A DNA stretch of 64,000 bases from Candidatus Niyogibacteria bacterium (GTDB taxonomy: Bacteria > Patescibacteriota > Minisyncoccia > HO2-45-28): NCBI GenBank assembly GCA_016432485.1, contig CP066691.1, positions 77,466-141,465 of the forward strand, given 5' to 3'. The translations under genes were made by a program, and so were the position numbers. A model generated the notes under the pieces. It made no database searches and had not been told where the DNA came from. It saw nothing but the letters and a program-made list of their open reading frames with translations. This document shows, one piece after another, positions 30,329-54,480 of the stretch (the stretch's first letter is position 1; each line of letters opens with the position of its first letter).

Positions 30329-30389
30329 TTATAAAATAATATCACCATTTGAACATACATACAAATAGTGATATTTTAAAACGCGAAAA

Positions 30390-31184: not shown

Positions 31185-31283
31185 GCTCGCCCCCCTTTTT
31201 GAAATGTCAAAAAACCACTTGAATACCTATTCAAATGATAATCCGAAAGCGAGAATTTGTCAAGCGTCTTAAAAATTTTAAAT

Positions 31284-31916: not shown

Positions 31917-31928
31917 ATTATTTTTTTA

Positions 31929-33874: not shown

Positions 33875-33877
33875 ATT

Positions 33878-34120: not shown

Positions 34121-34182
34121 AAAATTATATTGATAAGTTTTTAATTTCTAATTGTCGTTAGTTATTTCAGCTCTTCCGGCAT
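34121..34182 (-). promoter_or_regulatory. Upstream region of the glutaredoxin gene containing TAATTTCTAATTG (same 13-mer as at 15608)
   Basis: …gtttttaatttctaattgtcgttagtt…. Confidence 0.3.
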
Positions 34183-34863: not shown

Positions 34864-35289
34864 CTAGATTAATTTTTTAACCTCTTCTTCTAATTGGCCT
34901 TCGACTCCAGGACCAAGAATATTAAAAACAATGTCGCCGTTTTTATCAATTAAGTAATACGCCGGCCAATTTTCCACTTTGTACGCTTTCCAATTTTGCC
35001 TTGCGTTATCGGTAAGCACCGGAAAATCCACTTTCAAAACTTTCATTTGTTTCTTGAGGGCTTCGATGTCCCGCTCAAAAGTTGTTTCCGGAGAATGAAC
35101 ACCAAGCACTATCAACCCCCTGTCTTTGTATTTCTTTTCAATCTCCATAATGCCAGGCAAATCCTGCTGGCACCAAGAGCACATAAAAGTCCAGAATTTA
35201 ATTAAAACCACTTTGCCTTTCAGGTCGGCGAGTTTAAGCGGCTCTGAATTGAGCCATTTTTCGCCATCGGTTATAAATTCCGGCGCCCT
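34864..35289 (-). CDS. Thioredoxin-fold redoxin (AhpC/TSA/TlpA-like, CSWC)
   Basis: KFWTFMCSWCQQDLP. Start set at MRAPEF, 7 nt downstream of the merA-like stop. The longer ORF-track start would overlap merA by ~100 nt. Confidence 0.65.
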   Translation of the reverse strand, partial: RAPEFITDGEKWLNSEPLKLADLKGKVVLIKFWTFMCSWCQQDLPGIMEIEKKYKDRGLIVLGVHSPETTFERDIEALKKQMKVLKVDFPVLTDNARQNWKAYKVENWPAYYLIDKNGDIVFNILGPGVEGQLEEEVKKLI

Positions 35290-35296
35290 CATATAT

Positions 35297-36823: not shown

Positions 36824-37182
36824 ACTTTTAATCGCCCCTTAAGAATTTGCACCAAGGGAGTTTTCCTTAATTTATAATACACATTGCGGAAATCTCGACG
36901 GCGCTCCACAATGTCCGCTTTTTGTAATTTTTTAAGGGTGTGTGAGACGGCAGAAATGGAAATGCCGACCACCTCGGCAATGTCTCCGACGGACAGTTCC
37001 TTGTGCCGGCACAAAAGATAACAAATTTTCAGACGCGTCGGGTCGCCGACCATATTAAATTCCCGCGCGCAGGCAATAATGGCGTTTTTATCGTTAAGTT
37101 CCTTTTTGAGATTATTTTTATTCCTACTTGAGCTCACGTTCAAATGATAACAAAATAAATATAAAAGTACAACAAGCATCAA
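36820..37182 (-). CDS. ArsR/SmtB-family metalloregulator (CxC in alpha-helix: KICYLLC); start uncertain, may be at MVGDP (37053)
   Basis: wHTH SVGDIAEVVGISISAVSHTLKKL. Overlaps the merA-like start by 4 nt. The N-terminal 43 codons of the ORF contain promoter-like AT-rich sequence. Confidence 0.6.
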   Translation of the reverse strand: MMLVVLLYLFCYHLNVSSSRNKNNLKKELNDKNAIIACAREFNMVGDPTRLKICYLLCRHKELSVGDIAEVVGISISAVSHTLKKLQKADIVERRRDFRNVYYKLRKTPLVQILKGRLKV

Positions 37183-37249
37183 AACTTAGACCCCAATACA
37201 AAAGCCGGGCAAGCTCGGCTTTTTATAAAAATATTCTTAACCTATAGGT

Positions 37250-37837
37250 CTAATTTTGGTGGTATTTGCTTGGTAAATTTTTCCGTCCCCACAGCATTGT
37301 CTCGGCCATCCAGATAAGTTCTTCCAAAAATTCATCAGCGCGTTGATTATACGCGTCGTCTTTCAATTTACCGTCGCTATCAAAAGTATTTTGAACTTGC
37401 GGAAAATTCAGATTGGAGAAAGTGACCGCCAGCCCCAGTTCTCTTACCACCGGAACAAGCGACTCAACGGCCCTGGTTCCTCCCCAGGGACCCGCTGAAA
37501 CACCCACAAGTCCGACTGCCTTATGCACATATTCCCGAAGCACGACATCCAAGAGCGATTTAAGCGTCCCGGGATAAGCGTGATTATATTCCGGAACAAC
37601 AACAACAAGCCCGTCGGCCTTTATTATCGCGTCGCGATATTCGGAGAATTTTCCCTTATCTTTAAGTGCTTGTCCGTAATCATTTGTCGGAAAGTTAAAG
37701 TCGCGGACATCAAAAAGTTTTGTCTCAATCTTTTCATGCCCGTTCATCCTGTCATATAAAAACTTGGCGACATTTTCGCTTTGCCTGCCTTCCCGGTTTG
37801 TTCCAAGAATTACCGGTATAAATAATTTTTCCGTCAT
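37250..37837 (-). CDS. NAD(P)H-dependent FMN reductase / flavodoxin-like protein
   Basis: GLVVVVPEYNHAYPGTLKSLLD. Confidence 0.6.
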   Translation of the reverse strand: MTEKLFIPVILGTNREGRQSENVAKFLYDRMNGHEKIETKLFDVRDFNFPTNDYGQALKDKGKFSEYRDAIIKADGLVVVVPEYNHAYPGTLKSLLDVVLREYVHKAVGLVGVSAGPWGGTRAVESLVPVVRELGLAVTFSNLNFPQVQNTFDSDGKLKDDAYNQRADEFLEELIWMAETMLWGRKNLPSKYHQN

Positions 37838-37863
37838 ATATTTGAGTTTTATTATTTATTAAA

Positions 37864-38100
37864 TTATTTAATTCCCAAAAGGCCGGAGAGCCGTTCTTTG
37901 TCAAAGCCGACCGTGAGTTCGCCGTCGATATCCGTCACAGGCACGCCCATTTGTCCCGACTTTTTAATCATTTCCTCGCGCGCCGCGGCGTCCGAAGCAA
38001 CGTCTTTTTCGGAATATTCAATATTATTTTCCTTGAAGAACGCCTTAGTCATCTTGCAGTAGACGCACGAAGGGGTGGTATAAATTGTTACATTTTTCAT
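37864..38100 (-). CDS. Glutaredoxin-like protein (CVYC)
   Basis: VTIYTTPSCVYCKMTK. Confidence 0.75.
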   Translation of the reverse strand: MKNVTIYTTPSCVYCKMTKAFFKENNIEYSEKDVASDAAAREEMIKKSGQMGVPVTDIDGELTVGFDKERLSGLLGIK

Positions 38101-38122
38101 AATTTTTATTTATTTTTTTAAT

Positions 38123-38404
38123 TTAACTTATAATTTTTAGAATCGATTTTACGACTGAATCGTTTCTTTTGACTTTATAGCATATTTTTTGGCCCATTCT
38201 TTCCCTTTTAACGAGCCCCGCCATTTCCAGAATCCTGAATTGCTGGGAGACCGCTGGAACCGATATTTTAAGGGCGGAGGCGATTTCCGAAACGCAAAAA
38301 TCCTTCTTTTTGGCAATCAGCTCAAGTATGCGAAACCTGCTCGGATCGCCCAATACATTGAAAATAAGCCGGGTTTTTTCTTTTTTTGCCTTATATTTAG
38401 CCAT
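38123..38404 (-). CDS. ArsR-family regulator (paralog of 28434-28745, two-Cys type)
   Basis: GDPSRFRILELI…FCVSEIASALKISVPAVSQQFRILEMAGLV…KICYK. Confidence 0.8.
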   Translation of the reverse strand: MAKYKAKKEKTRLIFNVLGDPSRFRILELIAKKKDFCVSEIASALKISVPAVSQQFRILEMAGLVKRERMGQKICYKVKRNDSVVKSILKIIS

Positions 38405-39570: not shown

Positions 39571-39641
39571 TGGACCGTGGGAGAATCGAACTCCCGTCTC
39601 CCGGATGCAAACCGGGTGCATTGCCACTGTGCTAACGGCCC
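39571..39641 (-). tRNA. tRNA-Ala (anticodon TGC)
   Basis: Minus strand: GGGCCGT-TA-GCAC…TGCA-CCCGG-TTTGCAT-CCGGG-AGAC-GGGAG-TTCGATT-CTCCC-ACGGTCC-A. It has the G3:U70 Ala identity pair and the UGC anticodon. No encoded CCA. Confidence 0.8.
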
Positions 39642-39725: not shown

Positions 39726-40436
39726 ATGACGGACAAAAATCCGCCGCCCCTCCGGCGGCGTATATTCTTATATCCGGGTAAAAATTCCAGAAAGGTCTGT
39801 TTCTTTACTCTTACGGCGCTTTGGGTTTTCTTTTTTTGGATGTGGGGGCCTCTGGGGCCGTTTAATCTCGGGGCGGCGGATAATGTTCTTTTTTCATCCA
39901 AGTGGTGGTTTGACACATTGGGACACGCTATTGCCGGAATTATGCTCATTTTTTCCTTCCTGTATATTTACCGAACTCCCCAGCGCGTTCTTGAACTTGA
40001 ACGGGATGAACAAAAACATGAAATTCTGATACTCTCCGCCAAAATCACGGTTTTCGCGATAGCCGTATTATGGGAAGTTTTTGAGATGGCTGTTGACTGG
40101 TATATAAATGACTATACCTTTGCCGAGTTCAAGCACAATATGCAAAAAGGGGGCGCGGACACCACCCTTGATATTGTCGCGACAGGATTTTGCGGCTGGC
40201 TGACGGCCGGGTGCTACGGGCTATATAAAAAAAGATTCAGGATCAGGCATCTGAATGAACATTTTGAAATAGACAAAAAAATAGAATTAATTCAGGCCTT
40301 AACCGGCGAAGTTTTGGATGATTTACGGGTCTTACGCAAAGAAGACCGCAAAGAACGAATGGTAAAATTAAAAAGGAATGCGAGAAAACTAATGAAATTT
40401 TTTAAAAAGAAAAGCCGCTCAATGGGCCGCCCCTAA
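39726..40436 (+). CDS. Hypothetical integral membrane protein
   Basis: ORF with several hydrophobic helices. Start uncertain. Confidence 0.4.
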   Translation: MTDKNPPPLRRRIFLYPGKNSRKVCFFTLTALWVFFFWMWGPLGPFNLGAADNVLFSSKWWFDTLGHAIAGIMLIFSFLYIYRTPQRVLELERDEQKHEILILSAKITVFAIAVLWEVFEMAVDWYINDYTFAEFKHNMQKGGADTTLDIVATGFCGWLTAGCYGLYKKRFRIRHLNEHFEIDKKIELIQALTGEVLDDLRVLRKEDRKERMVKLKRNARKLMKFFKKKSRSMGRP

Positions 40437-41437
40437 AGGACGGCTTTTTTCATGGCAAGTTCCAATAAATGGTCAATCAGTTGATGAAATTCAAGACCGG
40501 CGGCTTCCAGCGCTTTCGGGCAAAGACATTCGCCGGCAAGTCCGGGAAGCGTGTTTAATTCCAAAAAATATATCTTGTTTCCGGAAACTATGAAGTCCGA
40601 GCGCGAATAATGCCGGCAGCCGAGGGCATTATGCGCGATAACGGCAAGAGTTTTTAATTTGCGCGCTGTTTCATCATTAAACCTTCCTGGGCATATTTCC
40701 TGCGTAGAGCCGTCATATTTACATTCATAGTCAAAAAATTCTTTTCCTGTCGGTGGAATAATTTCCACAATCGGAAAAGCGTAGTGAGGTTGCTGCCGAA
40801 AATTATCTACAACCGCGCAAGTTGCCTCGCGTCCCTTGATGAAAGGTTCAACCAGTGCCGTTTTATCGCGTCTAAGCGCGTCAGAGATGCCGGTAATCAG
40901 GTCATAGACGGTGCGGCATACGCTTACGCCTATTGACGACCCACAGCCTGCTGGTTTTACAATTAGCGGTAGGCCGAATTGGCGGATAGCTTCTGCGGAT
41001 TTGCTTTTTATGTCATCTGAAGTTTTTACCGCGATATAAGGCATAACGGGCATAGCGGAAAGCCGGAGCACTTCTCTTGCAAGGTGTTTCTGCATGGCAA
41101 GGGATGAGGCCAGCGAGTCCGAGCCGGTGTAAGGAACGTTGTGCGCTTCAAAGATTTTCTGCGCGGTTCCGTCTTCGCCGTATTCGCCGTGCAGAGCGTT
41201 AAATATAACATCAATGGATTTAAAAATTTTATGCGGCTCGCCTTGTTTTCCGTATAAATGCCAGACGCCGGTTTTATCAATGAAAATATCAACTGGTTCG
41301 TACTTGTCCTGAGCTTGCTTGCCGTGAGCTTGTCGAATCAGTCGAAGGGTTTTAAGCACAGTCTCCCCTGTTTTCAGGGAAACCTCGTATTCCGATGAAG
41401 GCCCTCCGCGCAAAACTCCGACTTTGATTTTAGCCAT
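40433..41437 (-). CDS. ddl: D-alanine--D-alanine ligase
   Basis: MAKIKVGVLRGGPSSEYEVSLKTG N-terminus and ATP-grasp core. Start at MAKIK rather than the extended ORF. Confidence 0.85.
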   Translation of the reverse strand: MAKIKVGVLRGGPSSEYEVSLKTGETVLKTLRLIRQAHGKQAQDKYEPVDIFIDKTGVWHLYGKQGEPHKIFKSIDVIFNALHGEYGEDGTAQKIFEAHNVPYTGSDSLASSLAMQKHLAREVLRLSAMPVMPYIAVKTSDDIKSKSAEAIRQFGLPLIVKPAGCGSSIGVSVCRTVYDLITGISDALRRDKTALVEPFIKGREATCAVVDNFRQQPHYAFPIVEIIPPTGKEFFDYECKYDGSTQEICPGRFNDETARKLKTLAVIAHNALGCRHYSRSDFIVSGNKIYFLELNTLPGLAGECLCPKALEAAGLEFHQLIDHLLELAMKKAVL

Positions 41438-41485
41438 TAACTTTATTATACTGTAATAAGATTGAAGGCAAAATAGGAGACGCCG

Positions 41486-42313
41486 ATGCTCACAAGGCTT
41501 GATTTTTATGGTGGGCTTGAACAGCTCCGCGGTTTTAACAGTTTTCCGGCGCCGCATTTTTTTACAACATTGCAAGCCGGCAATATGTCTTCGGAATGGG
41601 GAGACGAGGAAGAGGTTTATGACAATTTTAAAAATTTTCTTCGTCAGGTGATGCCCCGTAGACCTAAGCCGGTTTTAATGCTCCCCGAGCATTCGCATAA
41701 AATTACTATTTTATCACCTCATCAGTCTTCCGCTTGGAATATCAAATGCGACGGCTTACTCACAGCGTCTCCACATATCGCGCTGGTGATGAAACCGGCG
41801 GATTGTCTTCCGGTCTTGATGACAACAGCCGACCGAAAATTTGTCGGTTTGATTCATGCCGGCTGGCGCGGGACAAATGAAGAAATTGCCAGCAAAGCCG
41901 TAGAATTAGCCGTTAGCGCTTACAAAGTTAAACCCGAAGAAATTTTTATCGGAATCGGACCCGGGATTCATGAGTGTTGTTATGATGATGAAGAATTGGC
42001 TCGTAAACTTTTATCGGATGAACGTTGGCGGCCGTTTATCAGCGGGGGTCCGCTCGGAGCGCGCATTGATTTGCTTGATTTTAACGTAAGACAGCTTTTG
42101 GGCGCCGGAGTTAAGCGTGAACATATAAAAGTCGCCGAAAATTGTACCTGCCATTCGCGGGAAAAAAATGAATATTTGTTTTTTTCTCATCACCGCGTGA
42201 AAAGGCAAAGCGAAGAAAAAGCGCGTTTGGAAAAAGAGGGTCGGTTTGAAGAAGCTGAAAAAATCATTCCGGAACCCGAAGGTCGACATGCCGCAGTCGT
42301 TTCAATGATTTAA
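41486..42313 (+). CDS. pgeF: YfiH/PgeF-family laccase-domain protein (peptidoglycan editing factor)
   Basis: HIALVMKPADCLPVL…GLIHAGWRGT…GIGPGIHECCYD. The start may lie downstream. Confidence 0.7.
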   Translation: MLTRLDFYGGLEQLRGFNSFPAPHFFTTLQAGNMSSEWGDEEEVYDNFKNFLRQVMPRRPKPVLMLPEHSHKITILSPHQSSAWNIKCDGLLTASPHIALVMKPADCLPVLMTTADRKFVGLIHAGWRGTNEEIASKAVELAVSAYKVKPEEIFIGIGPGIHECCYDDEELARKLLSDERWRPFISGGPLGARIDLLDFNVRQLLGAGVKREHIKVAENCTCHSREKNEYLFFSHHRVKRQSEEKARLEKEGRFEEAEKIIPEPEGRHAAVVSMI

Positions 42314-42352
42314 GGATTTAGATTTAAGAGCATAATCTAATATCAGCGGTCG

Positions 42353-42380
42353 CTTGTATTAGATTATCATAAAAAATCCC
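42353..42380. terminator. Bidirectional rho-independent terminator (tcccgac-gcgtt-gtcggga flanked by A/T tracts) between convergent genes
   Basis: aaaaaatcccgacgcgttgtcgggactttactttttag. Confidence 0.55.
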
Positions 42381-42397
42381 GACGCGTTGTCGGGACT

Positions 42398-43120
42398 TTA
42401 CTTTTTAGCCGCGATTTTGTCTTTGATGGCATTGAACACCGCCTCAATTGTTTTATCAAACATTTGGGGCTTTGAAAGTTCAGTTGAGTCAATCAAGATA
42501 ACCGGTTTTCCGGCGCCTTTCATTTCCTCATAACTTTGGCTGAAAATTTCAACTAGTTCACCCGTGGTTTTTAAATCAGTATAGCTCCCCTCTTTTGATT
42601 CAATGATTGTCGGCGCGTCAAGTTTCGCCCGCCTCTTTGCTTCTTCTGGCGAGCAGATTACATACAGGCATAGATCAATAAAGTCAAGTATTAGCGTATT
42701 GGTGAAGAATTTTTGAAATTCAGCCATTTCTTTTTTGCTTAGGTTGCCCCTGCGTTGCCAGAAAATCATCCATCCATGAGCGTCATAAAGCGCGCGGTCA
42801 AGCAAAACGACATCGTGGTCCCGGCCGGTTGCCGCGCTTGAAACATTAATAAGCCCATAAGCGCCGGTAGTCAGGTTATAAAGCGGCGTTTTTCGCGATA
42901 AAGCCCTGAAAACCTCGGCGCCTTCTTGAGGTCTATACACTTTGAAGGCGCTATGTCTGAAAATGGAATCCACGCCGTTAATCAGCGTAGTTTTGCCCGA
43001 GTTAGGCGAACCTGTAAGCTCTATAATGAGCGGTCTTGGGATTTCCTCGCGCAAGTTTCTTTTCAGAAATTCGCGCATTTCCTGTAAAAGTTTTTCAAAT
43101 TCTTTAGTTTGATTGGCCAC
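42398..43120 (-). CDS. P-loop nucleotide/nucleoside kinase-like protein
   Basis: Walker A ELTGSPNSGKTTL and VLLDRAL. Confidence 0.4.
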   Translation of the reverse strand: MANQTKEFEKLLQEMREFLKRNLREEIPRPLIIELTGSPNSGKTTLINGVDSIFRHSAFKVYRPQEGAEVFRALSRKTPLYNLTTGAYGLINVSSAATGRDHDVVLLDRALYDAHGWMIFWQRRGNLSKKEMAEFQKFFTNTLILDFIDLCLYVICSPEEAKRRAKLDAPTIIESKEGSYTDLKTTGELVEIFSQSYEEMKGAGKPVILIDSTELSKPQMFDKTIEAVFNAIKDKIAAKK

Positions 43121-43165
43121 TTCAAACTCCTTGTAAAAAAATTTTTATCTGACTAAAATGCTAAC

Positions 43166-43744
43166 ATGTTAAAAATGACCAAAATAGGTCTTGATTTAGA
43201 TGGCGTCATAATTGATCATACGTCAAGCCGGATTAAAAAGGCCCGCGAGCTTGGCTATGACGTCAAGCCTCGCGAAACTTCGACGCATATCATAAAAAAA
43301 CTTTTATCGCCGGAACATTATAAAGAACTTCAGATGTACGTTTATGGTCCGGCTTCACTTTTGGCGCCCACAATGGAGAGGGCGGCTGAACAGATTAAAA
43401 AGCTTGCGTCTAAAAACGAACTTTTCATAATTTCCCGCCGCAATATTTATGATGAAGGGGATAAGTTAGGCTTAAAATGGCTTGAATCTAACGGTTTATT
43501 TGATTTTATACCAAAAGATAAAATTATTTTCGTGCCTCACGACGAAAAGGGGGCAAAAAATGTTGCTGCCAAAAAACTGGGTATTGAAATTTATCTAGAC
43601 GACCAATTAAAAATTCTTGAAGAAATTCCGGATGTCAAAACCCGCGTTCTTTTTGACCAGCACAATATCTCTTCTCCTCCGCCTCCCTACGCCAAAGTGG
43701 TAAACTGGCTGGAGTTTGCCGATTTTGTATCCAAATTCTCCTAA
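43166..43744 (+). CDS. HAD-superfamily hydrolase (5'(3')-deoxyribonucleotidase-like)
   Basis: N-terminal IGLDLDGVIIDH (DxDxV/T motif). Confidence 0.55.
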   Translation: MLKMTKIGLDLDGVIIDHTSSRIKKARELGYDVKPRETSTHIIKKLLSPEHYKELQMYVYGPASLLAPTMERAAEQIKKLASKNELFIISRRNIYDEGDKLGLKWLESNGLFDFIPKDKIIFVPHDEKGAKNVAAKKLGIEIYLDDQLKILEEIPDVKTRVLFDQHNISSPPPPYAKVVNWLEFADFVSKFS

Positions 43745-43880
43745 AAAACTAAACACCGAGTGTCTAGTAAAAATTGATAAAAAATAAAACCCCGCTTTAT
43801 AAAATACTCTTATCCTTGACGTCAACCCCATAAGCAAAGCAGAATTTAACTAAAGAACCTTGTTTTATGGGGGCTTCGAA

Positions 43881-44492
43881 ATGCTGCGAATAGCTATTTT
43901 GGGAGCGACCGGCGTCGGTAAGGACACCCTTTGCCGTCTGCTTGCCAACGATCTGGCGCGATATTCTCTCGCTCGGAAAAAGCTGGTTAAAATCCGAGAA
44001 ATTCAGGAGTACTCGGTTTTGTGGACGGATAAAACCGGCGGAACAAAAGAATTTTTTGAACAATTTTGGATTTATCAGATGCAAAGGGAATGGGACCATG
44101 ATTTTGACTCGCGCTCAAACGATGACTTTTGCGCGGTTATTTTACGAGCACCCGCTCCACTGGCATACTTTTTTGCTCTCGCTTTCGCCGATATTAAAGA
44201 CGAAAAGCATCGCGAGGCCCTTGCCGACCTCTACAAAGAGGCGTTGGGCGAACTTTTGAAATACGATCTGATATTTTTCCTTCCCATTGAATTTAATGTG
44301 CCAGAGGGAGACCGTTTGCGTAAAAAAGATTTCCGTTTTAATGTTAACGCGTCAATCAGGTCATTTCTTCCCCTGCATAAAATACCTTTTATTGAAATAC
44401 GCGGCACGGAAACTGAAAGAGCCAAAAAAGTTGCAAGAGCAGTTAAAGATATGTTTAAAGCCAAAGTCGCCCAAGAGACGCAAAAATCTTAA
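43881..44492 (+). CDS. P-loop NTPase, hypothetical
   Basis: MLRIAILGATGVGKDTL Walker A. Confidence 0.4.
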   Translation: MLRIAILGATGVGKDTLCRLLANDLARYSLARKKLVKIREIQEYSVLWTDKTGGTKEFFEQFWIYQMQREWDHDFDSRSNDDFCAVILRAPAPLAYFFALAFADIKDEKHREALADLYKEALGELLKYDLIFFLPIEFNVPEGDRLRKKDFRFNVNASIRSFLPLHKIPFIEIRGTETERAKKVARAVKDMFKAKVAQETQKS

Positions 44493-44494
44493 AA

Positions 44495-44520
44495 GTCCCG
44501 CTGTTGTCGGGACTTTTGTT
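44495..44520 (+). terminator. Rho-independent terminator (agtcccg-ctgttg-tcgggact + tttgtttt)
   Basis: Seen in sequence. The stem is related to the one at 42353. Confidence 0.5.
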
Positions 44521-44551
44521 TTGAGTGAAAAAATGTATAATAAATAATTAA

Positions 44552-44664
44552 GGGCGTATAGCTCAGTGGGTCAAAAGCGTTTAAATAGCTTTTGACGGGC
44601 GATTACAATAATTTAAATATAAATTTAGGTCGCCCAGGGAGAGCGCAGTCCTGACCCCAGTACC
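44552..44664 (+). other. tRNA-like 5' fragment (GGGCGTATAGCTCAGTGGGT…GGAGAGCGCAGTCCTGACCCCAGTACC) interrupted by two AT-rich hairpins; not a complete tRNA
   Basis: tRNA-like acceptor/D-arm sequence, but no complete cloverleaf can be folded. Its 3' end, CCCCAGTACC, is complementary to GGTACGGGG at 44781-44789. Confidence 0.35.
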
Positions 44665-44673
44665 AAAAAATTT

Positions 44674-44747
44674 GCGGCTATAGCTCAGTTGGTTAGAGCG
44701 CGTCACTGATAATGACGAGGTCCTTGGTTCGAGTCCAAGTAGCCGCA
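44674..44747 (+). tRNA. tRNA-Ile (anticodon GAT)
   Basis: GCGGCTA-TA-GCTC-AGTTGGTTA-GAGC-G-CGTCA-CTGATAA-TGACG-AGGTC-CTTGG-TTCGAGT-CCAAG-TAGCCGC-A. A perfect cloverleaf. Confidence 0.9.
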
Positions 44748-44780
44748 CTAAATGTAGAGCAAATTTTTGGTACGGGGCAA

Positions 44781-44820
44781 GTAATGACGAGGCCGGAGGT
44801 TCGATCCCTCCCATGCCCAC
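44781..44820 (+). other. tRNA 3'-half-like fragment with T-arm, acceptor 3' strand and encoded CCA (…TGACGAGGCC-GGAGG-TTCGATC-CCTCC-CATGCCC-A-CCA)
   Basis: The T-arm carries compensatory changes relative to tRNA-Ile. No matching 5' half lies adjacent. Acceptor pairing with 44552-44558 is partial. Confidence 0.35.
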
Positions 44821-44828
44821 CAGAATAG

Positions 44829-44911
44829 AACTCAAAGGGTTTTGAGAGACCGAATTGTGGGCGGCGCAAAGCGCCGCCCACCAAATGGCTCTCAAAAAGC
44901 CGTTGAGTTTT
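44829..44911 (+). other. Cluster of three nested hairpins, including the 11-bp GC stem gtgggcggcgc-aaa-gcgccgcccac, directly after the tRNA region
   Basis: ctcaaagggttttgagag / gtgggcggcgcaaagcgccgcccac / ctctcaaaaagccgttgag, read directly. Confidence 0.5.
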
Positions 44912-44949
44912 ATCATGGTGTATTTATACGACCAAGCTCGAACCTATTT

Positions 44950-45420
44950 TAGCAGAAATTTCTGACACTGACGAACGCCCCGCCGCCCGCCTCCGCTAAC
45001 GCTCCGGCGGCAACCTCGCAGAAAAATATCCTCCGCAATTCTTTTTTTGCGCGCGCCCGATTTTTTCCTAAACAAGGAAGAGGATATTTTCTGCTCGGTT
45101 CCGCCCTCCAAGTATTTGGGCGGAGCGGCGGGGCTTCCATTCGCTTGGACGGCGCGGAATTCCCCCCTTGAACCCCCCTTCCGCCGCGCCCGAGCCGAAG
45201 CGAAGCCCCGTCGCCTGCTCTTTTAAGAGCAGAAGCCAGCAAAAAAGTTTTCTTCACCTTTTAGAAGAAAAAATTTATGGCGCGCGAAAATCAAAAATTG
45301 AGAAGAAAACTTTTTTGCTGGCTGGCGAGCGTCAGCGAGCGGCGGCGGGGCGAAGCGTCAGGCGTTCCGTTCAAAATAGGTTCGGATTATTTTCAGAGTA
45401 CTCCACAAGACTCCAAAATT
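44950..45420. repeat. GC-rich block containing several degenerate copies of the CCGCC…GGCGG palindromic element family
   Basis: For example, ccccgccgcccgcctccgctaacgctccggcgg (44988-45010) is approximately the reverse complement of the 36402 copy. ggagcggcggggc is repeated at 45122 and 45333. The ORFs predicted here (44949..45257, 45168..45437) look spurious. Confidence 0.5.
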
Positions 45421-45493
45421 ATCGACTTTACATTTAGAACTTTGCCGACTAGACTGGTTAATAGTTCTGAATATAGGGTCGTGGAGGGTTATT

Positions 45494-45805
45494 ATGCCTA
45501 AAGCCGATGTGGTTCTTGAAATCGATTTTGACGTTAACAGTCCGGAAAAAAGTGTAATAAGAACTAACGCCAAAAAAGAAAAACTTGGAGAGACACTTGA
45601 AGCGTGGCTGTCTTGCCAGTTTGGACTGGGTGAAGATGAGAGCGAGTTAGACAAAAAGGATATATATAAAATAAAAATCCAATTGGATTTAAGCGACGAC
45701 TCTTTCTATACCAACAGCGATACGGGGAATAAGGGACTTACTTGCGGAATTATTATATGCGTACTCGATAACTTGAGCCGGATTGAAGTTGTTGATCTTT
45801 CATAA
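45494..45805 (+). CDS. Hypothetical protein
   Basis: ORF only. Confidence 0.3.
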   Translation: MPKADVVLEIDFDVNSPEKSVIRTNAKKEKLGETLEAWLSCQFGLGEDESELDKKDIYKIKIQLDLSDDSFYTNSDTGNKGLTCGIIICVLDNLSRIEVVDLS

Positions 45806-45903
45806 ATCTGAAAGATAAAAAGTTAAGGCCGACGCATGTCGGTCTTTTTCTTTTAAATTTGTTGTCCTATGATATTTATGGGTGTTCTTACGGGAGGTCG
45901 GCC

Positions 45904-46701
45904 ATGGATTTACAAAAAATTATATTGACTCGATTGGATGAATATTTATTCGTGAATTTGGCAAATCCTCCGGTAAACGCGTTAAGTCGCGAGGTAATTG
46001 AAGAACTTCACGCAATGCTTGATTACGCTCAGAAAGAAGATTCAATACGGCAAATATTCATTGGCCACGGCGGAAAATTTTTCAGCGCCGGAGCCGACCT
46101 TGAGGAGTTACGCGAAGTGATTATGTCTGCGGATTGTTATATTAAAGCGGGAATGTTTTCCCGCCGCGGACAGATGCTTACTATGCGTATTGCCCGTTTT
46201 CCCAAAAAAATTATCGCGACCGTTAATGGGTATTGTCTTGGAGGAGGGCTTGAACTTGCGCTGGCATGCCATGAACAAATTTTTTTAAGTCAAGCTAAAA
46301 TTGGCTTGCCCGAAGCAACTCTTGGAATTATCCCCGGCTGGGGCGGTACGGCGTTAGCGCCCTTGAGGATTAAAGGCGCGCATAAATCGTTTCTTTCACG
46401 CGCTCAGATCGCGGCTCCCAGCGCGCTTTCTGACGGCGATATAAAAACAGAAACAAAAACTCCATCGCCTCTCGCGTTGAAATGGACAGAACTTCTGATG
46501 ACATTTGCCGCGCGTAGACATAAAGCGCTTGAATGCGACCTTGAATATCATTTCGCGATGGAAGCCGCGATATTCGCTTTTCTTTGCTCGGAAAGCGACG
46601 CGCGCGAAGGCCTAAGCGCGTTTTTTGAAAAAAGAAAGACTAATTTCAGCGCGGCTTCTCCGTCAACCGCGTTTGACCATATGGTCAAAATTTTTCGATA
46701 G
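45904..46701 (+). CDS. Enoyl-CoA hydratase/isomerase (crotonase) family protein
   Basis: FSAGADLEEL and GYCLGGGLELALACHEQIF…GIIPGWGGT. Confidence 0.75.
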   Translation: MDLQKIILTRLDEYLFVNLANPPVNALSREVIEELHAMLDYAQKEDSIRQIFIGHGGKFFSAGADLEELREVIMSADCYIKAGMFSRRGQMLTMRIARFPKKIIATVNGYCLGGGLELALACHEQIFLSQAKIGLPEATLGIIPGWGGTALAPLRIKGAHKSFLSRAQIAAPSALSDGDIKTETKTPSPLALKWTELLMTFAARRHKALECDLEYHFAMEAAIFAFLCSESDAREGLSAFFEKRKTNFSAASPSTAFDHMVKIFR

Positions 46702-46738
46702 TCTTGTGGATTGGATATGACAGAAAAAAGAAACGCGC

Positions 46739-47299
46739 CTAAGGCGCGTTTTTGAACTCTCTCCAGCGATCTGCCGTAAGTTCGTATCGTACAAAATCCA
46801 ACCATTGGCCCTTCCAAAAATACTCGTTTTTAAGAACGCCTACTTCACAATAGCCGAATTTTTCCGTGACATGGCGCATTCTTGCGTTATCAACACGGAA
46901 GTTCATATAAACCTTGTTCAATTTCAGATATTCAAAAACCCACTTATGCAGAATTTCCAACATTTCCTGAGCGTATCCTTTTCCGGTAAAATCTTTGTTT
47001 ATAATCATAATTCCCACACGGGCATTTCTGTTTATATCATCAATATCATGAATTCCAACCGTCCCGATTAAAACGTCTTTTTCGAGCGTTTCAGCGACAA
47101 ACACGAATTCTCGATACGGTCTTTTTGTCACGGCTTCTATCCACGCAGCTTCCCGCTCCAATGACGGCGCGCCGTCGGAAAAGAATACTAAATTGGATGC
47201 TATTCCAGGATTGTCCCCGAGAAGGGTTATAATAGGTAAAGCGTCTTTTATTTGAATCTGTCTTAACCTGATTCTTTTACCAGGAAGAAATTTGGCCAT
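46739..47299 (-). CDS. GNAT-family N-acetyltransferase (RimJ/RimL-like)
   Basis: GNAT core (…IGIMIINKDFTGKGYAQEML…). Confidence 0.7.
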   Translation of the reverse strand: MAKFLPGKRIRLRQIQIKDALPIITLLGDNPGIASNLVFFSDGAPSLEREAAWIEAVTKRPYREFVFVAETLEKDVLIGTVGIHDIDDINRNARVGIMIINKDFTGKGYAQEMLEILHKWVFEYLKLNKVYMNFRVDNARMRHVTEKFGYCEVGVLKNEYFWKGQWLDFVRYELTADRWREFKNAP

Positions 47300-47460: not shown

Positions 47461-47760
47461 CTAACTCATATGTTTTGAGACGAGTTTGGTCATCTCAAAC
47501 ATGTTGACTTCTCCTTTGCCGTCAAATAGCGGCCGGAGTTTGTCGTCGGCTTTGATGTTTCTTTTATTCTGGGGATTTTGCAGGTCGTGCTTTTTTATGT
47601 ACTCCCAGATTTTCTTAACGACCTCTCCTCTTGACATTGGGCCTTTACCGACAACGGCCTCGAGTTCCGAGGAAAGATTTAACGGCTTTAGTAAAGCCGG
47701 ATTTGCTTTTCTTACCATAGACTTTTGGATTAGATTAGTTATTAACATAATTCGACGCAC
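47461..47760 (-). CDS. SWIB/MDM2-domain protein
   Basis: …GKGPMSRGEVVKKIWEYIKKHDLQNPQNKRNIKADDKLRPLF…. Confidence 0.65.
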   Translation of the reverse strand: MRRIMLITNLIQKSMVRKANPALLKPLNLSSELEAVVGKGPMSRGEVVKKIWEYIKKHDLQNPQNKRNIKADDKLRPLFDGKGEVNMFEMTKLVSKHMS

Positions 47761-47804
47761 TTACATTATAGCATATTGAGCTTTATTTTGTCCCGTTCCC
47801 TTGT

Positions 47805-47832
47805 CCGCCATAGCTTTAGCGACGGCGGAGCC
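47805..47832. repeat. Copy of the palindromic element (gtccgccatagctttagcgacggcggag) in the 16S 3' trailer
   Basis: Same CCGCC-[AG]TAGCTTTAGCG-GGCGG architecture as the in-gene copies. Confidence 0.5.
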
Positions 47833-48140
47833 CCGATTTAAGGCTCTATGGGCGATACCTTATCCGCCAATGAGGCGGAAACGACCTTGCTAACAGCTAA
47901 AAGCTATAAGCTAAAAGCTGTGTTAGCTAAGTAAATAATCCACGACCAGCTTCCGCTAGCCGTGCCTTGTTACGACTTAGTCCCTGTCACCGAGCTCACC
48001 TTAGCCGAGCACCACTTTTACAACTATTGTTCTTACAAAAGAACGAGTTATGCAGTGCTACTTGGCGCTTATATTACAAGCGCTTTTCGCAAAAGTGGTG
48101 CTCGGTTTCGGGTGTTCCCGGCTTCCTTGACTTGACGGGC

Positions 48141-49122
48141 GGTATTATGGTCTAATATCTTTTCAAATATTTAGCCATGCACCACTGGGCAAGCAGTTTT
48201 CCTGCACCCTAGCGGTTTTCGTAGGTTCGGGCTTTTTTGCCTCGAGCCCTGATTTCTTCGCGTATTTTGATAATTTTCTTAAATCCTTTGTCCGTTAAAT
48301 GCTCTTTCTGTTTTACTTTCAAAACAATTGTTTTGAATCTTTTGTAGACCTCCGCCTTTTTTGCCTGTAAAGGACATTTATCAAGAAACGGAAAAAGAAA
48401 TTCTGTTAAATCCTTGTTGTTTGTAATTTTATATTTTACATGCGGATACCATCCATACCTTTCGTATGAAAGATCATAAATTCGTCCGCACCCAATTGTG
48501 ATTAAGATTCGTTCCAATATTTCTCTGTCATCGGCCCGAACTTCTATTTCAAACTCCGGCCTTATTTCAAGGCCGCGTTTAAGAGTTTTGTGTCTGCCAA
48601 TGCTTACTGAAAACGATCCCTCACCGTCAATAAAACCCGCAACATAGTTAGGATCAAGTTTTTTCCTACGAATTCGTTCCTTCCCAAACGGCGCTTTTAA
48701 TAAGCAGTTTTTGTGGTCGTCATTTTCAGACGACTTTCGTTTGGTACTACGAACTTTGCTGACTTCTTGCGTTGTTTTTGGACGATTGCTCGTTTTCATA
48801 CCTCGAGGTTATTATACCACGAGGACAACGCAAGATCTCCCACGGTAACCCATATATCTGTGTGTATCTATCTCGATGCCACTACACGCGTTATGCATTT
48901 TTTGCGGCGGGATTCTTCCTGTACTCGAGGAATCTCCCGCATAACGCGCCACAAACTGGCATTCAAGCTAAATACTGCTAATTTCACCCTTCGCCACGGC
49001 TCCTCGCGGAGACGGGCTGTGATTTTGCTTCGTTTCTACCGCAAAGAAACGGCTGGACTTCCGAGCGCATAAAACGTTATGTGCTTCGGTCACCAGCTAG
49101 ATACACGGATCGCATGGCGACC
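48141..49122 (-). mobile_element. ~1 kb intron in 16S (E. coli position ~1390-1400) encoding a LAGLIDADG homing endonuclease; probable group I intron
   Basis: The conserved GTACAC|ACCGCCCGTC block is split by ~980 nt containing a sense-strand ORF. Confidence 0.75.
48209..48799 (-). CDS. LAGLIDADG homing endonuclease (intron-encoded)
   Basis: YVAGFIDGEGSF motif. Same strand as the rRNA. Confidence 0.8.
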   Translation of the reverse strand: MKTSNRPKTTQEVSKVRSTKRKSSENDDHKNCLLKAPFGKERIRRKKLDPNYVAGFIDGEGSFSVSIGRHKTLKRGLEIRPEFEIEVRADDREILERILITIGCGRIYDLSYERYGWYPHVKYKITNNKDLTEFLFPFLDKCPLQAKKAEVYKRFKTIVLKVKQKEHLTDKGFKKIIKIREEIRARGKKARTYENR

Positions 49123-49630
49123 CGAGTACAAGACTCGAGAACGTATTCACCGCGGCGTTCTGATCCGCGATTACTAGCGATTCCGGCTTCACGAGGTCAG
49201 GTTGCAGACCTCGATCCGAATTGGGGCCGGCTTTGATGGGATTAGCTCCGCCTTACGGCTTGGCGACCCTTTGAACCGGCCATTGTAGCACGTGTGTAGC
49301 CCAGGGCATCAGAGGGCCATGCTGACTTGGCGTCATCCCCACCTTCCTCCCCGCCCTCTAAGCTCTACTTTAAATCCTCTTTACAAACTTATTGTGTTGA
49401 AGATTTACAACGACCGACGCGGTCATTGTTAAAGCATAGAGGGCGGGGCAGTTTCGCCTGACATATATAACAGGCAATGGGGGTTGCGCTCGTTACCCCA
49501 CTGAAGGGAACAACTCAAGCCACGAGCTGACGACAGCCATGCAGCGCCTGTCCAGCCGTCCTTGTGAGAAAACCTGCCTTTCGGCAAATTGTCGTCTGGA
49601 TTTCAAGCCCTGGTGAGGTTCTTCGCTTAC

Positions 49631-49665
<35 letters not shown>

Positions 49666-49676
49666 AGTCCCCGTCT

Positions 49677-49718
<42 letters not shown>

Positions 49719-49813
49719 GAGGCTTAACGCGTTAGCTTCGACACTCAAAGGGTCGATACTTCGAATATCTAGCCTCCATCGTTTAGGGCGCGGAGTACAA
49801 GGGTATCTACATC

Positions 49814-50200
49814 ATTGTTACTTAAACCGAACTTATTAATCATCGGTTAAGGAGCGAACATTTCTGCCGCTCTCTCCGTGTTACCACGAAGATCGGACTA
49901 TATCATCCCGCCAACATCTATAAAGTTGTGGCGGGCTCGGCGTATAGTCTCTACGGGGTTACTGGAAACTTATACTTGTATTTAGGCAATATATATTTTT
50001 TAACTGCAAACCACAATTTTTTAATTATCGTATATTTGCCATAAACACACGTATAAGTTTCCAGAACTTCCCTCGGTATTTTCCGTTTTTTAAAAACGGA
50101 TTTCTACCGATATAGCCGAGTTTGCATTCCATTGTCGCCAATGGAAGGGACTAGCAGCCAACTTTAATTATATCAATAAAGTTGGATACCCATGCCAATC
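49814..50200 (-). mobile_element. ~390-nt ORF-less intervening sequence in 16S (E. coli position ~790-800); probable intron
   Basis: GGGTATCTAATCC…CGCTTTCG is interrupted. No ORF longer than 60 aa on the rRNA strand. Confidence 0.55.
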
Positions 50201-51042
50201 CTTTTCCATACCCGCGCTTTCGTGTTTCAGAGTCAGGAACGCGCCAGTAGACTGCCTTCGCCTTTGGTGTTCCCCTGGATATCAATGGATTTCACTCCTA
50301 CACCCAGAGTTCCGTCTACCTCTCGCGTCCTCCGAGTTCAATGGTATCCCCTGCATTTTCGCCGTTGGGCGGCGATATTTAACAAAAGACTCATTAAACC
50401 TCCTACACACCCTTTACGCCCAGTAAATCCGGATAACGCTTGGGCTCCTCGTATTACCGCGGCTGCTGGCACGAGGTTAGCAAGCCCTTATTCATGGGAT
50501 ACTGTCACTTGCGTTCATCTCCCATAAAAGCAGTTTACGTCCCGAAGGATTTCTTCCTGCACGCGGCGTCGCTCGATCAGGCTTTCGCCCATTGTCGAAT
50601 ATTCTCGACTGCTGCCACCCGTAGGTGTATGGCCCGTGTCGCAGTGCCATTGGTGGGGGGCGAGCTCTCACTCCCCCTAGCCGTCATAGCCTTGGTAGGC
50701 TTTTACCCTGCCAACAAGCTGATAGCCCGCAGACCTTTCCCAGAGCGTCTTACGACTTTACCCTCACGGGAACTATCGGGAATTAGCCCCGCTTTCGCGG
50801 GGTTATGCCCGTCTCTGGGGTAAGTATCTACGTATTACTACCCCGTCTGCCACTCGCCAACGCTTCGCGTTGGAAGCACGAAATCCTAAATCCGAAATAC
50901 GAAACAAACTCAAAATTACAATACTCAAATTCCAAATGTTTTTAGTTTAGAATTTCGAGTTTGGATATTGTTTCGGATTTCGATATTCGAATTTCGAATT
51001 TCCAGTGCGAAGCACTGGCTCGTACGACTTGCATGCCTTATC

Positions 51043-51145
<103 letters not shown>

Positions 51146-51249
51146 TGAACGGGACAAAATAAAACTCACATGTTTTCCATACGAAATAAAAAACTTTAGT
51201 TTTTATAAATTTCGTATGGGATGCGTATAATGTGTATTAAATTTTCAAG

Positions 51250-52062: not shown

Positions 52063-54480
52063 TTAAAATTGAGGATAGCGTTTTTTAATTTCGGCTTCAA
52101 TTTCGGCAATGGGACGGCCGTATTTATTGGCGGATAATTTTTTGAGTAATACAGCGCTTGTTTCATTGCCCGTCTCCCTGGGCATAATTTTTATGTTAAA
52201 GGGTTTAATGGTCTGTCCGCGCACCAAAAGTTTGAGATAGCAGTTGAAGTTTTCAATGTTCATTAAATCTCTGGCTCCAAAAACCGGTTCAAATTGCTTC
52301 TCCATAAATTCCGCGTCATCCGCTCCGATTCTGAAAGAAGCGATTGAGCCGACGTTCCCGAAAACGGAAAGCCGTATGGGCTCGGTCAGCTGTCCTATAA
52401 ATTGGTGCGCCATCGTGAGGTCTAGGCGGTATTTTCTGGCTTCTGAAAGAATGGTGGCTATTGAAGGGGTTGTCACGTTTTGAAACTCGTCAAGATAGAG
52501 ATAAAAATCCCGTCTTTTCTCCTCCGGTATATTAACGCGGGAAAAGGCAGCCATCATAATTTTTCCGACTATTATCAATCCCAATAGCGACGAATTTGTC
52601 TCTCCTATTCTTCCTTTTGATAAATTAACGATTAAAATTTTTCCGCTGTCCATAATTTCTCGGAATTTCAGCGACGACTTTTCCTGCAAAAGAACGGGCC
52701 TCATAAATTCATTGCTTAAAAAGGCGTCAAACTTGGAGGTGATATAAGGCGTCATATTTGCAAGCGCCGCTTCTCCTCCGGCTTTTTCGGCTACATCGCG
52801 CCAGAAAGCGTTGATCACCGGATTTCTGGAACGGGAGAGTTTTAATCTGCGAAATTCCGGATCGGACATAACCCGTTCTATTTCAAAAAGCGTATTGCCG
52901 GAAGGCGGGTCTTCCATTACTAAGAGCGTTGAATTTCTAAAATAAGTTTCAAACATCGGGCCCAGCGCCTCCGGAACGTCCGCGTAAAGTTTGCGGAATA
53001 TCTCCAAAAGCTCGTTGACTATGAAAGTTTTTTGTTCGGGATAGGCCGGGTCATATTCCAAAAAATTAAGGCCCATAGGTCTGGATGTGTTTGCGGGGTC
53101 AAAATATACGACATCTCCTAAGCGATTTTCCGGAATATAACCAAGCGCTGTTTCGGCCATATCGCCATGCGGGTCAATAACGCATAAGCCCTCTCCGGAT
53201 TCAATATCTTGTTTTATCATATTTTGCAGGAAAGTCGTTTTGCCGGTGCCGGTCTGTCCTATTATATATAGGTGTCTGCGCCTGTCGTCTTTAGACAGTC
53301 TGATTGGCGCGCTTTCGCCTCGGTAAATATTTTCTCCCAAAAGAATTCCTTCCGTAGGCAGTCCGGGCGGCGCGGGCGCGTCTTTAGCTTTGAGAAATTT
53401 CAGTTTCGGAGCAGTCGTAATAACGGACGGAAAATGATATACGCTTGTCAGTTCTCGGCTGTTTAGCGCCATAGTTTTCGCCGCGTCCGGCGTCCTAAAA
53501 GAGAAACGATATATAAAATTATTTAAATCCCTTGGTTTAATTTTTTTGAAAACAAAACTGTTTCCCCTTGTCTCGGCAAATTGAATAAAGGCGCTGGCCA
53601 ATTCCTGAAGAATTCTTTCGGCTTCCTCCGGTTCTGAAGCCGAAGTTACAAGGCGTATGTTGACGCTAAATACCGGGAAAGCGGCTTTTTCTTCAAGAAG
53701 TTTGGCGGTTTCTTCGTCAACTACGGCCGGGCCGTCTTTTTTGGGCCCTTCTCCCCTGCCCGTTAATAAAAATTTGATGGTCTCTTTCGTTTTGTTTAAT
53801 CCTTCGCCGGTTTGGATTTTTTTACCTTCGCGAACGGACTTAATGGCGCCCTTCAGCTTTTTGATAAAATTTTTGGGTCCGCGGCTGACTATTATTTGAA
53901 GCGCGGCTCCCTCGCCTTCTTTTTTAAGTTTGGCAAAAGCGTTGGCAATAACTTCAAGAGGGTCGGCGTCAAGCCGCTGATAGGTTCGTATGGATAAAAG
54001 CGGAGAAACGGCTAAAGAAAAATAACCTCCGGCGCTCGCGCCCTCGGCATTAAAAATATTATAATCCTCTTTTTTTTCCTCAATTTTGGCGTAGGGGTAT
54101 AAACCCTGCAGATGTTTTTCAAAAAGCCGCGCCTTTTTCCTTGGAACCGCCGCATAAAAAACGGCTTCTTCTCCGGCTGAAGGCAGGGCCAGCTCCAGAG
54201 CAAAACCGGAACGGCCGAACCATCGGTCTTCAAAAATAGCGGCCAGTCCCGCGTAAAATTGCTCCATAGTTGAAATCAGGTCCTTGAAAGAAAGATTTTC
54301 TTTTGGGGGTTGGCCGCCAAAAGGCAGAGTCACTTCATAGAGAGCGAATTCAAGAGAAGATAAAATCTCGCGCCGCTTTTTAATCCTTCTTATAAAAAAA
54401 AATAAAGCGCCGCCCAGGATTAAAAACAAAGCCGCGCCGATATATATAAAGAAAAGCTGTTGGAAAGTGAGAAGAATCAT
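52063..54480 (-). CDS. VirB4/TraC-like (DUF87-type) membrane-anchored P-loop ATPase of a type IV secretion/pilus-like system
   Basis: N-terminal TM; Walker A IIGQTGTGKTTFL; DPHGD; Walker B FYLYLDEFQNV. Confidence 0.45.
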   Translation of the reverse strand: MILLTFQQLFFIYIGAALFLILGGALFFFIRRIKKRREILSSLEFALYEVTLPFGGQPPKENLSFKDLISTMEQFYAGLAAIFEDRWFGRSGFALELALPSAGEEAVFYAAVPRKKARLFEKHLQGLYPYAKIEEKKEDYNIFNAEGASAGGYFSLAVSPLLSIRTYQRLDADPLEVIANAFAKLKKEGEGAALQIIVSRGPKNFIKKLKGAIKSVREGKKIQTGEGLNKTKETIKFLLTGRGEGPKKDGPAVVDEETAKLLEEKAAFPVFSVNIRLVTSASEPEEAERILQELASAFIQFAETRGNSFVFKKIKPRDLNNFIYRFSFRTPDAAKTMALNSRELTSVYHFPSVITTAPKLKFLKAKDAPAPPGLPTEGILLGENIYRGESAPIRLSKDDRRRHLYIIGQTGTGKTTFLQNMIKQDIESGEGLCVIDPHGDMAETALGYIPENRLGDVVYFDPANTSRPMGLNFLEYDPAYPEQKTFIVNELLEIFRKLYADVPEALGPMFETYFRNSTLLVMEDPPSGNTLFEIERVMSDPEFRRLKLSRSRNPVINAFWRDVAEKAGGEAALANMTPYITSKFDAFLSNEFMRPVLLQEKSSLKFREIMDSGKILIVNLSKGRIGETNSSLLGLIIVGKIMMAAFSRVNIPEEKRRDFYLYLDEFQNVTTPSIATILSEARKYRLDLTMAHQFIGQLTEPIRLSVFGNVGSIASFRIGADDAEFMEKQFEPVFGARDLMNIENFNCYLKLLVRGQTIKPFNIKIMPRETGNETSAVLLKKLSANKYGRPIAEIEAEIKKRYPQF

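Follow-up and report, generated by a model that had tools for sequence, protein, structure and literature searches.

That the anti-Shine-Dalgarno (anti-SD) sequence CCUCC has been lost from the 3' tail of 16S ribosomal RNA (rRNA) has already been described in roughly half of the Parcubacteria. The 16S rRNA gene described here is a further example; it lies in a stretch of 64,000 nucleotides (nt) of Candidatus Niyogibacteria bacterium (GCA_016432485.1, contig CP066691.1, positions 77,466 to 141,465), hereafter called the window. According to the survey of Tsurumaki (2022, RNA 28:1041, PMC9297842), the sequence CCTCCT is detected in only 48% of the 16S genes of Parcubacteria and Shine-Dalgarno (SD) helices probably do not form; the rRNAs of these bacteria bear insertions, the ribosomal protein bS21 is frequently missing and their bS1 is short. 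The window displays the same anti-SD loss in what is probably the same clade. The survey, in its available part, scored the presence or absence of the motif and deals neither with replacement tails, nor with covariation of tail and leader, nor with the route of initiation (PMC9297842); the window adds data on leaderless starts, coupling and retained SDs.

SR1, Peribacter and two groups of Parcubacteria, the Campbellbacteria and the Wolfebacteria, figure among the SD-scarce organisms without CCUCC, in a class where 2-7% of genes have SD-type pairing (PLoS One 2024, PMC10783764). The window resembles this class by the missing CCUCC, by the few SDs and by a variant tail that is common to close relatives; the class also comprises endosymbionts, Flavobacteriia and Nanoarchaeia, and no mechanism specific to Parcubacteria is given for it (PMC10783764). 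Loss of the anti-SD is recurrent in reduced genomes (PMC7782861), and the endosymbionts and mitochondria resemble the Parcubacteria in that CCUCC has been lost repeatedly in small genomes where ribosomal proteins are lost as well (Lim 2012, PMC3457768; Nikolaeva 2020, PMC7782861). Those losses concern scattered terminal lineages, whereas the loss in Parcubacteria spans a large, ancient and free-standing clade with many divergent tails. Era, the normal reader of GAUCACCUCC, is lost in most lineages of the candidate phyla radiation (CPR) (PMC10582724). Losses of uL1, bS21 and Era are reported for the group; in the 64 kb of the window, neither their genes nor the genes that usually adjoin them are present.

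The Bacteroidetes, known from the ribosome of Flavobacterium johnsoniae, share with the window the scarcity of SDs, A-rich starts and a small set of genes that keep an SD; with few exceptions, their anti-SD is still the canonical one and is concealed within the ribosome (PMC7797042). A sequestered anti-SD of this type was rejected for the window, where CCUCC is absent from the 16S tail. As the anti-SD itself is gone, the regulatory logic of the Bacteroidetes cannot apply.

Well-studied bacteria rich in leaderless messenger RNAs (mRNAs), such as the Actinobacteria and Deinococcus, are known to keep the canonical anti-SD and to use SDs on their leadered genes. As in leaderless-rich bacteria, a -10-like motif is found in the window and its relatives at a fixed short distance before starts instead of an SD (Zheng 2011, PMC3160421). 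The difference is that here the leaderless signature occurs together with a missing anti-SD.

A ribosome that has lost the anti-SD cannot choose its starts by SD pairing. From the observations presented below, we consider it probable that the 16S rRNA of this bacterium, which probably belongs to the Parcubacteria (Paceibacteria) and whose 16S gene is of the single-copy type, truly lacks the anti-SD and that initiation is SD-independent.

The 16S rRNA gene and its 3' tail

The 16S rRNA gene is located on the minus strand (47928..51088), where it was delimited with the Rfam model SSU_rRNA_bacteria and with exon alignments; it is 3161 nt long for an exon length of ~1530 nt. The match with the Rfam model (1206.6 bits) gives 51088 as the 5' end and puts the 3' end at 49012. 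We rejected this 3' end as a forced misalignment: the last ~130 positions of the model are fitted to unrelated sequence with non-canonical pairs, and the 3' domain picks up again ~1 kb onward on the minus strand. The misplacement is due to a 980-nt insertion that carries a LAGLIDADG gene. The register of the tail was set by an exon-only alignment against the E. coli 16S rRNA. The 3' domain is composed, in this order, of ACCGCCCGUCA, an expanded helix 44 (h44), GUCGUAACAAGG, helix 45 (h45) and the tail GGAUUAUUUACUUA. The universal segment GTCGTAACAAGG (GUCGUAACAAGG; 47976..47965, minus strand) precedes h45, and h45 (47964..47942, minus strand) is predicted as a 10-bp hairpin with a GGAA tetraloop (CACGGCUAGC-GGAA-GCUGGUCGU[G]), whose closing G already belongs to the tail as its first base; the two features together span 47942..47976.

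The tail occupies the positions 47941..47928 of the minus strand (GGATTATTTACTTA) and aligns position by position with the E. coli sequence GGAUCACCUCCUUA (1529-1542). UUUAC is found at positions 1535-1539, the anti-SD site where CCUCC is expected, in a register anchored by h45 and GGAU. Relative to E. coli, the substitutions are C1533U, C1535U, C1536U and C1538A, and C1539 is kept. A sequence-only reading of the window had placed a tail without CCUCC at 47928-47945, a range that corresponds to the tail and 4 nt of h45. Its coordinates were right, in exact register after h45, and located the tail better than Rfam; its statement that every C of CACCUCC appears to be replaced goes one base too far, four of the five being changed.

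Insertions in the gene were defined against an insertion-free metagenome relative (L132) that is 91.4% identical over 1540 nt. Five were found, all given here on the minus strand. The first is a hairpin expansion of ~133 nt in the region of helix 6 (50866..51015), which corresponds to a 145-nt insert in the Rfam alignment and to the inverted repeat I1. The second, absent from L132, is a 388-nt group I intron located after U788 of E. coli (49810..50197). Its match with the Rfam model Intron_gpI (49874..50189) has a score of 54.5 bits for a threshold of 50; the 5' exon ends in GGAU and the intron ends in GAUG, so that a U ends the exon and a G ends the intron, as in group I introns. The third is an expansion of ~48 nt around position 1157 of the Rfam model (49376..49430; inverted repeat I7), and the fifth is a 78-nt expansion of h44 (48013..48090; inverted repeat I12, with perfect arms of 15 nt). 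The fourth is the 980-nt insertion, which is absent from L132 and lies between E. coli positions 1397 and 1398 (48144..49123). It contains an open reading frame (ORF) of 196 amino acids (aa) for a LAGLIDADG homing endonuclease (48209..48799; Pfam LAGLIDADG_1, E 2.6e-21). The insertion has no match with Intron_gpI (Rfam, E up to 1) nor with any intron model of Rfam; its identification as a group I intron was rejected, since it has no detectable group I core and ends in CCAUAAU, not in G. Despite the LAGLIDADG endonuclease gene, neither a group I nor a group II core is detectable in it. The rRNA insertions of this gene fit the CPR.

Concerning the precursor, a processing stem flanks the gene (inverted repeat pair I4, minus strand). 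Its 5' arm is at 51147..51168 and its 3' arm, of 22 nt and 95% complementary to the former, is at 47777..47798; the primary transcript must consequently extend at least ~150 nt beyond the tail. The 129-nt trailer in between (47799..47927, minus strand) has three hairpins (folding z = -3.85) and is not conserved in relatives. No CCUCC is present in the trailer, and no CCTCC within 345 nt on the 3' side of the tail. The sole CCUCC between the two arms of the processing stem is within the stem of helix 27, and the precursor of L132 has none; a surrogate CCUCC in the precursor was thus rejected.

The sequence GGATTATTTACT is identical in the window and in four close lineages (L123, L124, L126 and L129), and divergence begins immediately after it. 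These four lineages were recovered by a metagenome scan for this tail type and have the same h45 as the window; all share GGAUUAUUUACU, with no similarity from the next base onward. Conservation reaches position 1540 in close relatives, and so sharp a boundary indicates that the edge of selective constraint is at an E. coli-like place. The mature 3' end of this 16S rRNA most likely sits about where that of E. coli does. In many related genomes (L047, L112, L038, L061, L063 and others), the sequence right after GGAUUA is palindromic, for example UUCCAAUUGGA and UUCAAAUUGAA, and in L112 the sequence following the tail is able to fold back and pair with GGAUU. In the precursors of these genomes, a hairpin may thus sequester the tail.

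When one genome per species was scanned for 16S tails that have no C at positions 1535 and 1536, at least 120 loci were obtained. At least 120 species representatives thus have tails without CCUCC, with 56 distinct 14-nt tails among the matches listed. These listed matches come nearly all from metagenome-assembled genomes (MAGs) of Patescibacteria/Parcubacteria, to which is added the cultured Minisyncoccus archaeiphilus (tail GGAUCAUUUAUUUA). Among the fetched loci, the nearest 16S sequences are those of MAGs of Yonathbacteria, Harrisonbacteria and Taylorbacteria (77-88% identity, over exon segments only), and GGATTATTT is found in loci of these three groups. The tail variant GGATTATTTACT is present in the four close lineages named above on independent metagenome contigs, from several samples. 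The comparison with the tails of related CPR genomes, which the sequence-only reading had suggested, shows that variants without CCUCC are common to close relatives. The rarity that it ascribed to anti-SD loss applies across bacteria; in the Parcubacteria the loss is common and published (PMC9297842; PMC10783764).

The gene is unusually interrupted, with its five insertions, and is unlinked to a 23S gene, as might be expected of a decaying pseudogene, a misassembly or a chimera, the real 16S tail of the organism being normal. We regard such an artefact as extremely improbable. The exons reach 1206 bits against the bacterial small-subunit model, h44, h45 and the GGAA loop are intact and the 22-nt processing stem is in place. 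Moreover, the same tail recurs on independent contigs from several samples, and at least 120 species representatives have tails without CCUCC.

Shine-Dalgarno use and the function of the tail

The set of 63 genes of the window was obtained with a home-made caller based on ORFs and on a codon-usage score, and the starts were refined by neighbouring genes. The percentages of SD motifs for the window and for E. coli were calculated from the ATG-start ORFs of an earlier and simpler call set (30 and 37 genes, respectively). The motifs GGAG, GAGG and AGGA were searched at -20..-1, with -60..-41 as control region, and the same pipeline was applied to E. coli; the annotated genes of B. anthracis pXO1 (33% GC) were used as a further control. 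The background level of SD motifs was judged on the window and on the 8-kb loci of its relatives.

SD motifs precede 13% of the starts in the window, for 10% in the control region. The corresponding values are 59% and 8% in E. coli, and 62% and 11% in B. anthracis pXO1. The mean free energy (dG) of the duplex with the canonical tail is -3.2 kcal/mol in the window (control, -3.1 kcal/mol), to be compared with -6.4 kcal/mol in E. coli (control, -3.0 kcal/mol). In the pooled relatives (355 genes), the SD 4-mers are present upstream of 12.1% of genes versus 11.3% in the control, and there is no peak of G at -12..-7. SD motifs are therefore at background level in the window and in the pooled relatives. 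The absence of SD motifs noticed by the sequence-only reading is confirmed statistically, with six exceptions located between 39.7 and 47.3 kb that it had missed; the genes that it had named (murD, ftsW, gltX, dnaB, mod and serS) were confirmed by NCBIfam.

It had also been proposed that the 16S tail is co-evolved with the start regions. The altered tail would then be a new anti-SD, pairing with the A/U-rich element GUAAAUAA (the complement of UUAUUUAC) before start codons. Some observations go in this direction. TAAATAA or AAATAA, both complementary to the tail, are seen by eye in many upstream regions of the window. Tail-complementary 5-mers are present in 32 of the 63 upstream regions, a marginal excess over shuffled sequences (25.2 +/- 3.4), and the longest tail-complementary run has a mean of 4.47 nt at -20..-1 versus 3.80 nt at -60..-41. 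The tail is also kept among close relatives.

The pairing itself shows no such relation. The mean dG of the duplex formed with the window's own tail is -2.3 kcal/mol, close to the -2.1 kcal/mol found at control positions, and the window tail gives a similar apparent enrichment when it is matched to the start regions of E. coli (3.68 versus 3.35). The same A/T-rich k-mers are enriched near the starts of genomes with other tails, and resolve to -10 boxes at a fixed offset of -7. A covariation test was realized on 91 genomes (371 genes) with differing CCUCC-less tails, by comparing the pairing of the start regions with their own tail and with the tails of the other genomes, after removal of row and column effects. 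No own-tail effect was detected (residual 0.038, standard deviation of the null 0.048); in the same test, a complementary 6-mer spiked into 5-10% of genes gives a value of ~0.22. The lack of covariation and the dG at control level led us to reject a co-evolved alternative SD/anti-SD pair, which we hold to be very improbable, and this part of the sequence-only reading falls. The tail is probably held within families for ribosome assembly or 3'-end processing, and not for pairing with mRNA.

Proposed routes of initiation and genes that keep an SD

The -10 boxes emerged from an unbiased k-mer analysis of the A/T-rich motifs near starts. In the pooled loci (L001-L132), TATAAT-like hexamers end at -7 (34-38 cases) or at -8 (20-22 cases) before ATG, for ~5 cases per position elsewhere. 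In the subset selected by the hexamer, T is found in 63% and G in 55% of cases at the TGn positions of an extended -10, which are outside the selection rule. A -35 element is not enriched before these leaderless-type starts (17%, for 15% in shuffled sequences), as would be expected of extended -10 promoters. Where the upstream gap measures 40 nt or more, the -10 box signature is present in 19% of genes, for 1-4% when the offset is that of a control, with a contribution of 32 of the 96 loci of relatives; it is found in none of 52 genes of E. coli and none of 37 of pXO1. With a -10 box ending at -7, transcription would start on the A of AUG, giving a leaderless mRNA. In the literature searched, we found no report of leaderless initiation in Parcubacteria.

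In the window, the leaderless-type start of the NT5C gene (43145..43168, plus strand) has a TAAAAT box that ends 7 nt before the ATG (start 43166), and the NT5C orthologue of the relative L129 keeps TAGAAT at a similar distance. The other leaderless-type starts are at 63437 (minus strand), 54917 (plus), 54851 (minus), 30328 (minus), 15653 (plus) and 58748 (minus). The starts 54851 and 54917 form a divergent pair in which both are of this type.

A second feature of the window is the tight packing of its genes. Twenty-five of the 63 starts overlap the preceding same-strand stop or sit within 10 nt of it, and the overlapping gene pairs comprise eight overlaps of 4 nt and two of 8 nt. The many overlapping starts and stops reported by the sequence-only reading are thus found, and this spacing fits reinitiation. 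Start regions have a high A content at -11..-3 and little structure, the minimum free energy of the region -30..+30 being -6.1 kcal/mol, versus -10.0 kcal/mol inside genes.

From these sequence features we infer a mechanism of initiation with three routes. Genes that head a transcript would often be translated from leaderless mRNAs, made from extended -10 boxes (TGnTATAAT) that end 7 nt before AUG. Genes within operons would be reached by termination-reinitiation or by coupling, since 40% of starts overlap the preceding stop or are at most 10 nt away from it. The other leadered genes would depend on A-rich and weakly structured start regions. As for the SD-independent initiation put forward by the sequence-only reading, the leaderless, coupled and A-rich routes that it listed each leave a trace in the sequence; only the tail as a pairing partner has to be removed from its proposal.

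A minority of genes have canonical SDs. Six genes with a textbook SD are grouped in the block 39726..47299, between the alanine transfer RNA (tRNA-Ala, 39571-39641) and the 16S 3' end. Their starts are at 39726 (plus strand, GGAGG +6), 41486 (plus, AGGAG +6), 43120 (minus, AAGGAG +7), 45494 (plus, GGAGG +6), 45904 (plus, GGAGG +6) and 47299 (minus, GGGAGAG +8). The SD of the block genes is also found at their orthologues in three relatives (L124, L129 and L132), and the same SD-minority pattern is seen in the loci L124, L128, L129 and L132. When the CCUCC-less loci are pooled, the ends of GGAGG/AGGAG display a peak at -10..-5, with 33 occurrences for ~1 per position elsewhere. The SDs of this peak belong to 25 genes, distributed over 21 of the 113 loci irrespective of tail type, and consist of GGAGG, AGGAG or AAGGAGG at 5-9 nt. 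We rejected the possibility that these are spurious ORFs within 23S or 16S genes: all 25 remained after masking with E. coli rRNA, and many are identified as real genes by Pfam.

The SD genes matched by Pfam are mostly accessory (purC, a purQ-like amidotransferase, agmatine deiminase, a permease, NUDIX, HAD, GNAT, HtrA and PgeF). The SD is kept in orthologues with only 41-61% of protein identity, in the case of PgeF, GNAT, AAA_28 and a gene of 142 aa at 63.9 kb; the orthologues of genes without an SD remain SD-free. The tail is unable to read these SDs, with pairing energies of -1.0 to -1.8 kcal/mol where a canonical tail would give -6.9 to -10.7 kcal/mol, and no part of the 16S precursor could pair with them. 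The GC content of the SD block (0.42-0.46) and its codon score do not distinguish it from the rest of the window. A compositionally foreign island was thus rejected; the block may nevertheless have a horizontal origin.

The existence of genes with SDs correctly spaced at -10..-5, which number 25 in 21 CCUCC-less loci and whose orthologues keep the motif, would be explained if, outside the window, the genome had a second 16S gene or some other source of CCUCC. The ribosomes would in that case be of two kinds, the canonical kind reading the SD minority. We judge this quite improbable. There is no second 16S copy within the 64-kb window, and no surrogate CCUCC in the 16S precursor. Every close relative recovered has a tail without CCUCC, although the search pattern required that tail. 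In addition, CPR genomes generally have one set of rRNA genes.

The retained SDs may result from horizontal acquisition with slow decay, from a second rRNA copy, or from a reader or a function other than pairing with 16S rRNA. If the retention is due to selection, either something besides the known 16S tail would read these purine-rich SDs, or the function of the motif would be unrelated to initiation; we consider this unlikely, while retaining it for consideration. The candidates for such a reader are a second copy of the rRNA with a specialised role, a protein and an RNA of another kind.

Several points weigh against a 16S rRNA truly devoid of an anti-SD and against the routes of initiation proposed above. 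First, ~5-10% of genes have correctly spaced canonical SDs that orthologues retain, with no anti-SD to explain them, and a second 16S copy is possible outside the 64-kb window. Second, the window has a modest leaderless signature, at 7 of its 63 starts, and 31 of the 63 starts belong to neither the coupled nor the leaderless class, and some of the gene starts given by the home-made caller will be wrong. Finally, the position of the mature 3' end and those of the transcription starts are deduced from sequence. With these points taken into account, anti-SD loss together with SD-independent initiation is the reading that we consider probable.

Surroundings of the gene and meaning of the loss

No 23S or 5S gene is present in the 64-kb window. 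The tRNA-Ile(GAU) gene (44674-44748, plus strand) is 3.2 kb and the tRNA-Ala(UGC) gene (39571-39641, minus strand) is 8.3 kb beyond the 16S 3' end. These two tRNAs, the usual spacer tRNAs, are on opposite strands and are separated by protein genes. The rRNA operon thus has a broken-up look, and any 23S gene is found in only 10 of 131 related loci. An ORF of 95-99 aa (47461-47760, minus strand) is located just past the 16S processing stem and keeps its place beside the 16S gene; it matches the C-terminal region of the topoisomerase III and 'topoisomerase I/SWI domain fusion' models. Its protein is 82-91% identical in relatives, where identity is only 41-66% for the other proteins of the neighbourhood. 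A gene (52063-54480, minus strand) located ~1 kb upstream of the 16S 5' end encodes a protein of 805 aa with weak similarity to the VirD4/TraD conjugative coupling proteins.

Three other regions were observed at a greater distance. The region 2378-8989 (plus strand) has a GC content of 0.34-0.39, versus ~0.44 elsewhere, and encodes an adenine methyltransferase, an ATPase similar to retron Eco8/OLD effectors and a restriction endonuclease of the BPTD_3080 family. There is a 4-nt overlap between the first gene and the second, and 7 nt separate the end of the second from the start of the third; the region is probably an acquired defence island. A single ORF at 22125-24554 (minus strand) contains a glucose-6-phosphate dehydrogenase (residues 1-425) and a 6-phosphogluconate dehydrogenase-like domain (residues 535-765), and looks like a zwf-gnd fusion. 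Finally, the region 24570-38404 (minus strand) is a dense thiol-redox cluster with four ResA/thioredoxin-like and two glutaredoxin-like proteins, two flavoproteins similar to MerA/dihydrolipoyl dehydrogenase, a DsbD-like membrane protein and three regulators of the ArsR family.

Automated rRNA annotation cuts intron-laden 16S genes of the CPR short of their true tail. Since the annotation at the Rfam gathering threshold stops at 49012 in this gene, surveys of the anti-SD that rely on such annotation can be biased. The window does not reveal a new phenomenon; it is a clean and well-anchored example of a published loss. With it, vague alternatives become predictions: leaderless transcripts from extended -10 promoters, reinitiation in packed operons and no replacement pairing. 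Of all the elements described, the minority of genes with a retained SD alone could open onto something new. In textbooks, bacteria find their starts by SD pairing, and the Parcubacteria are a large radiation that dropped it.

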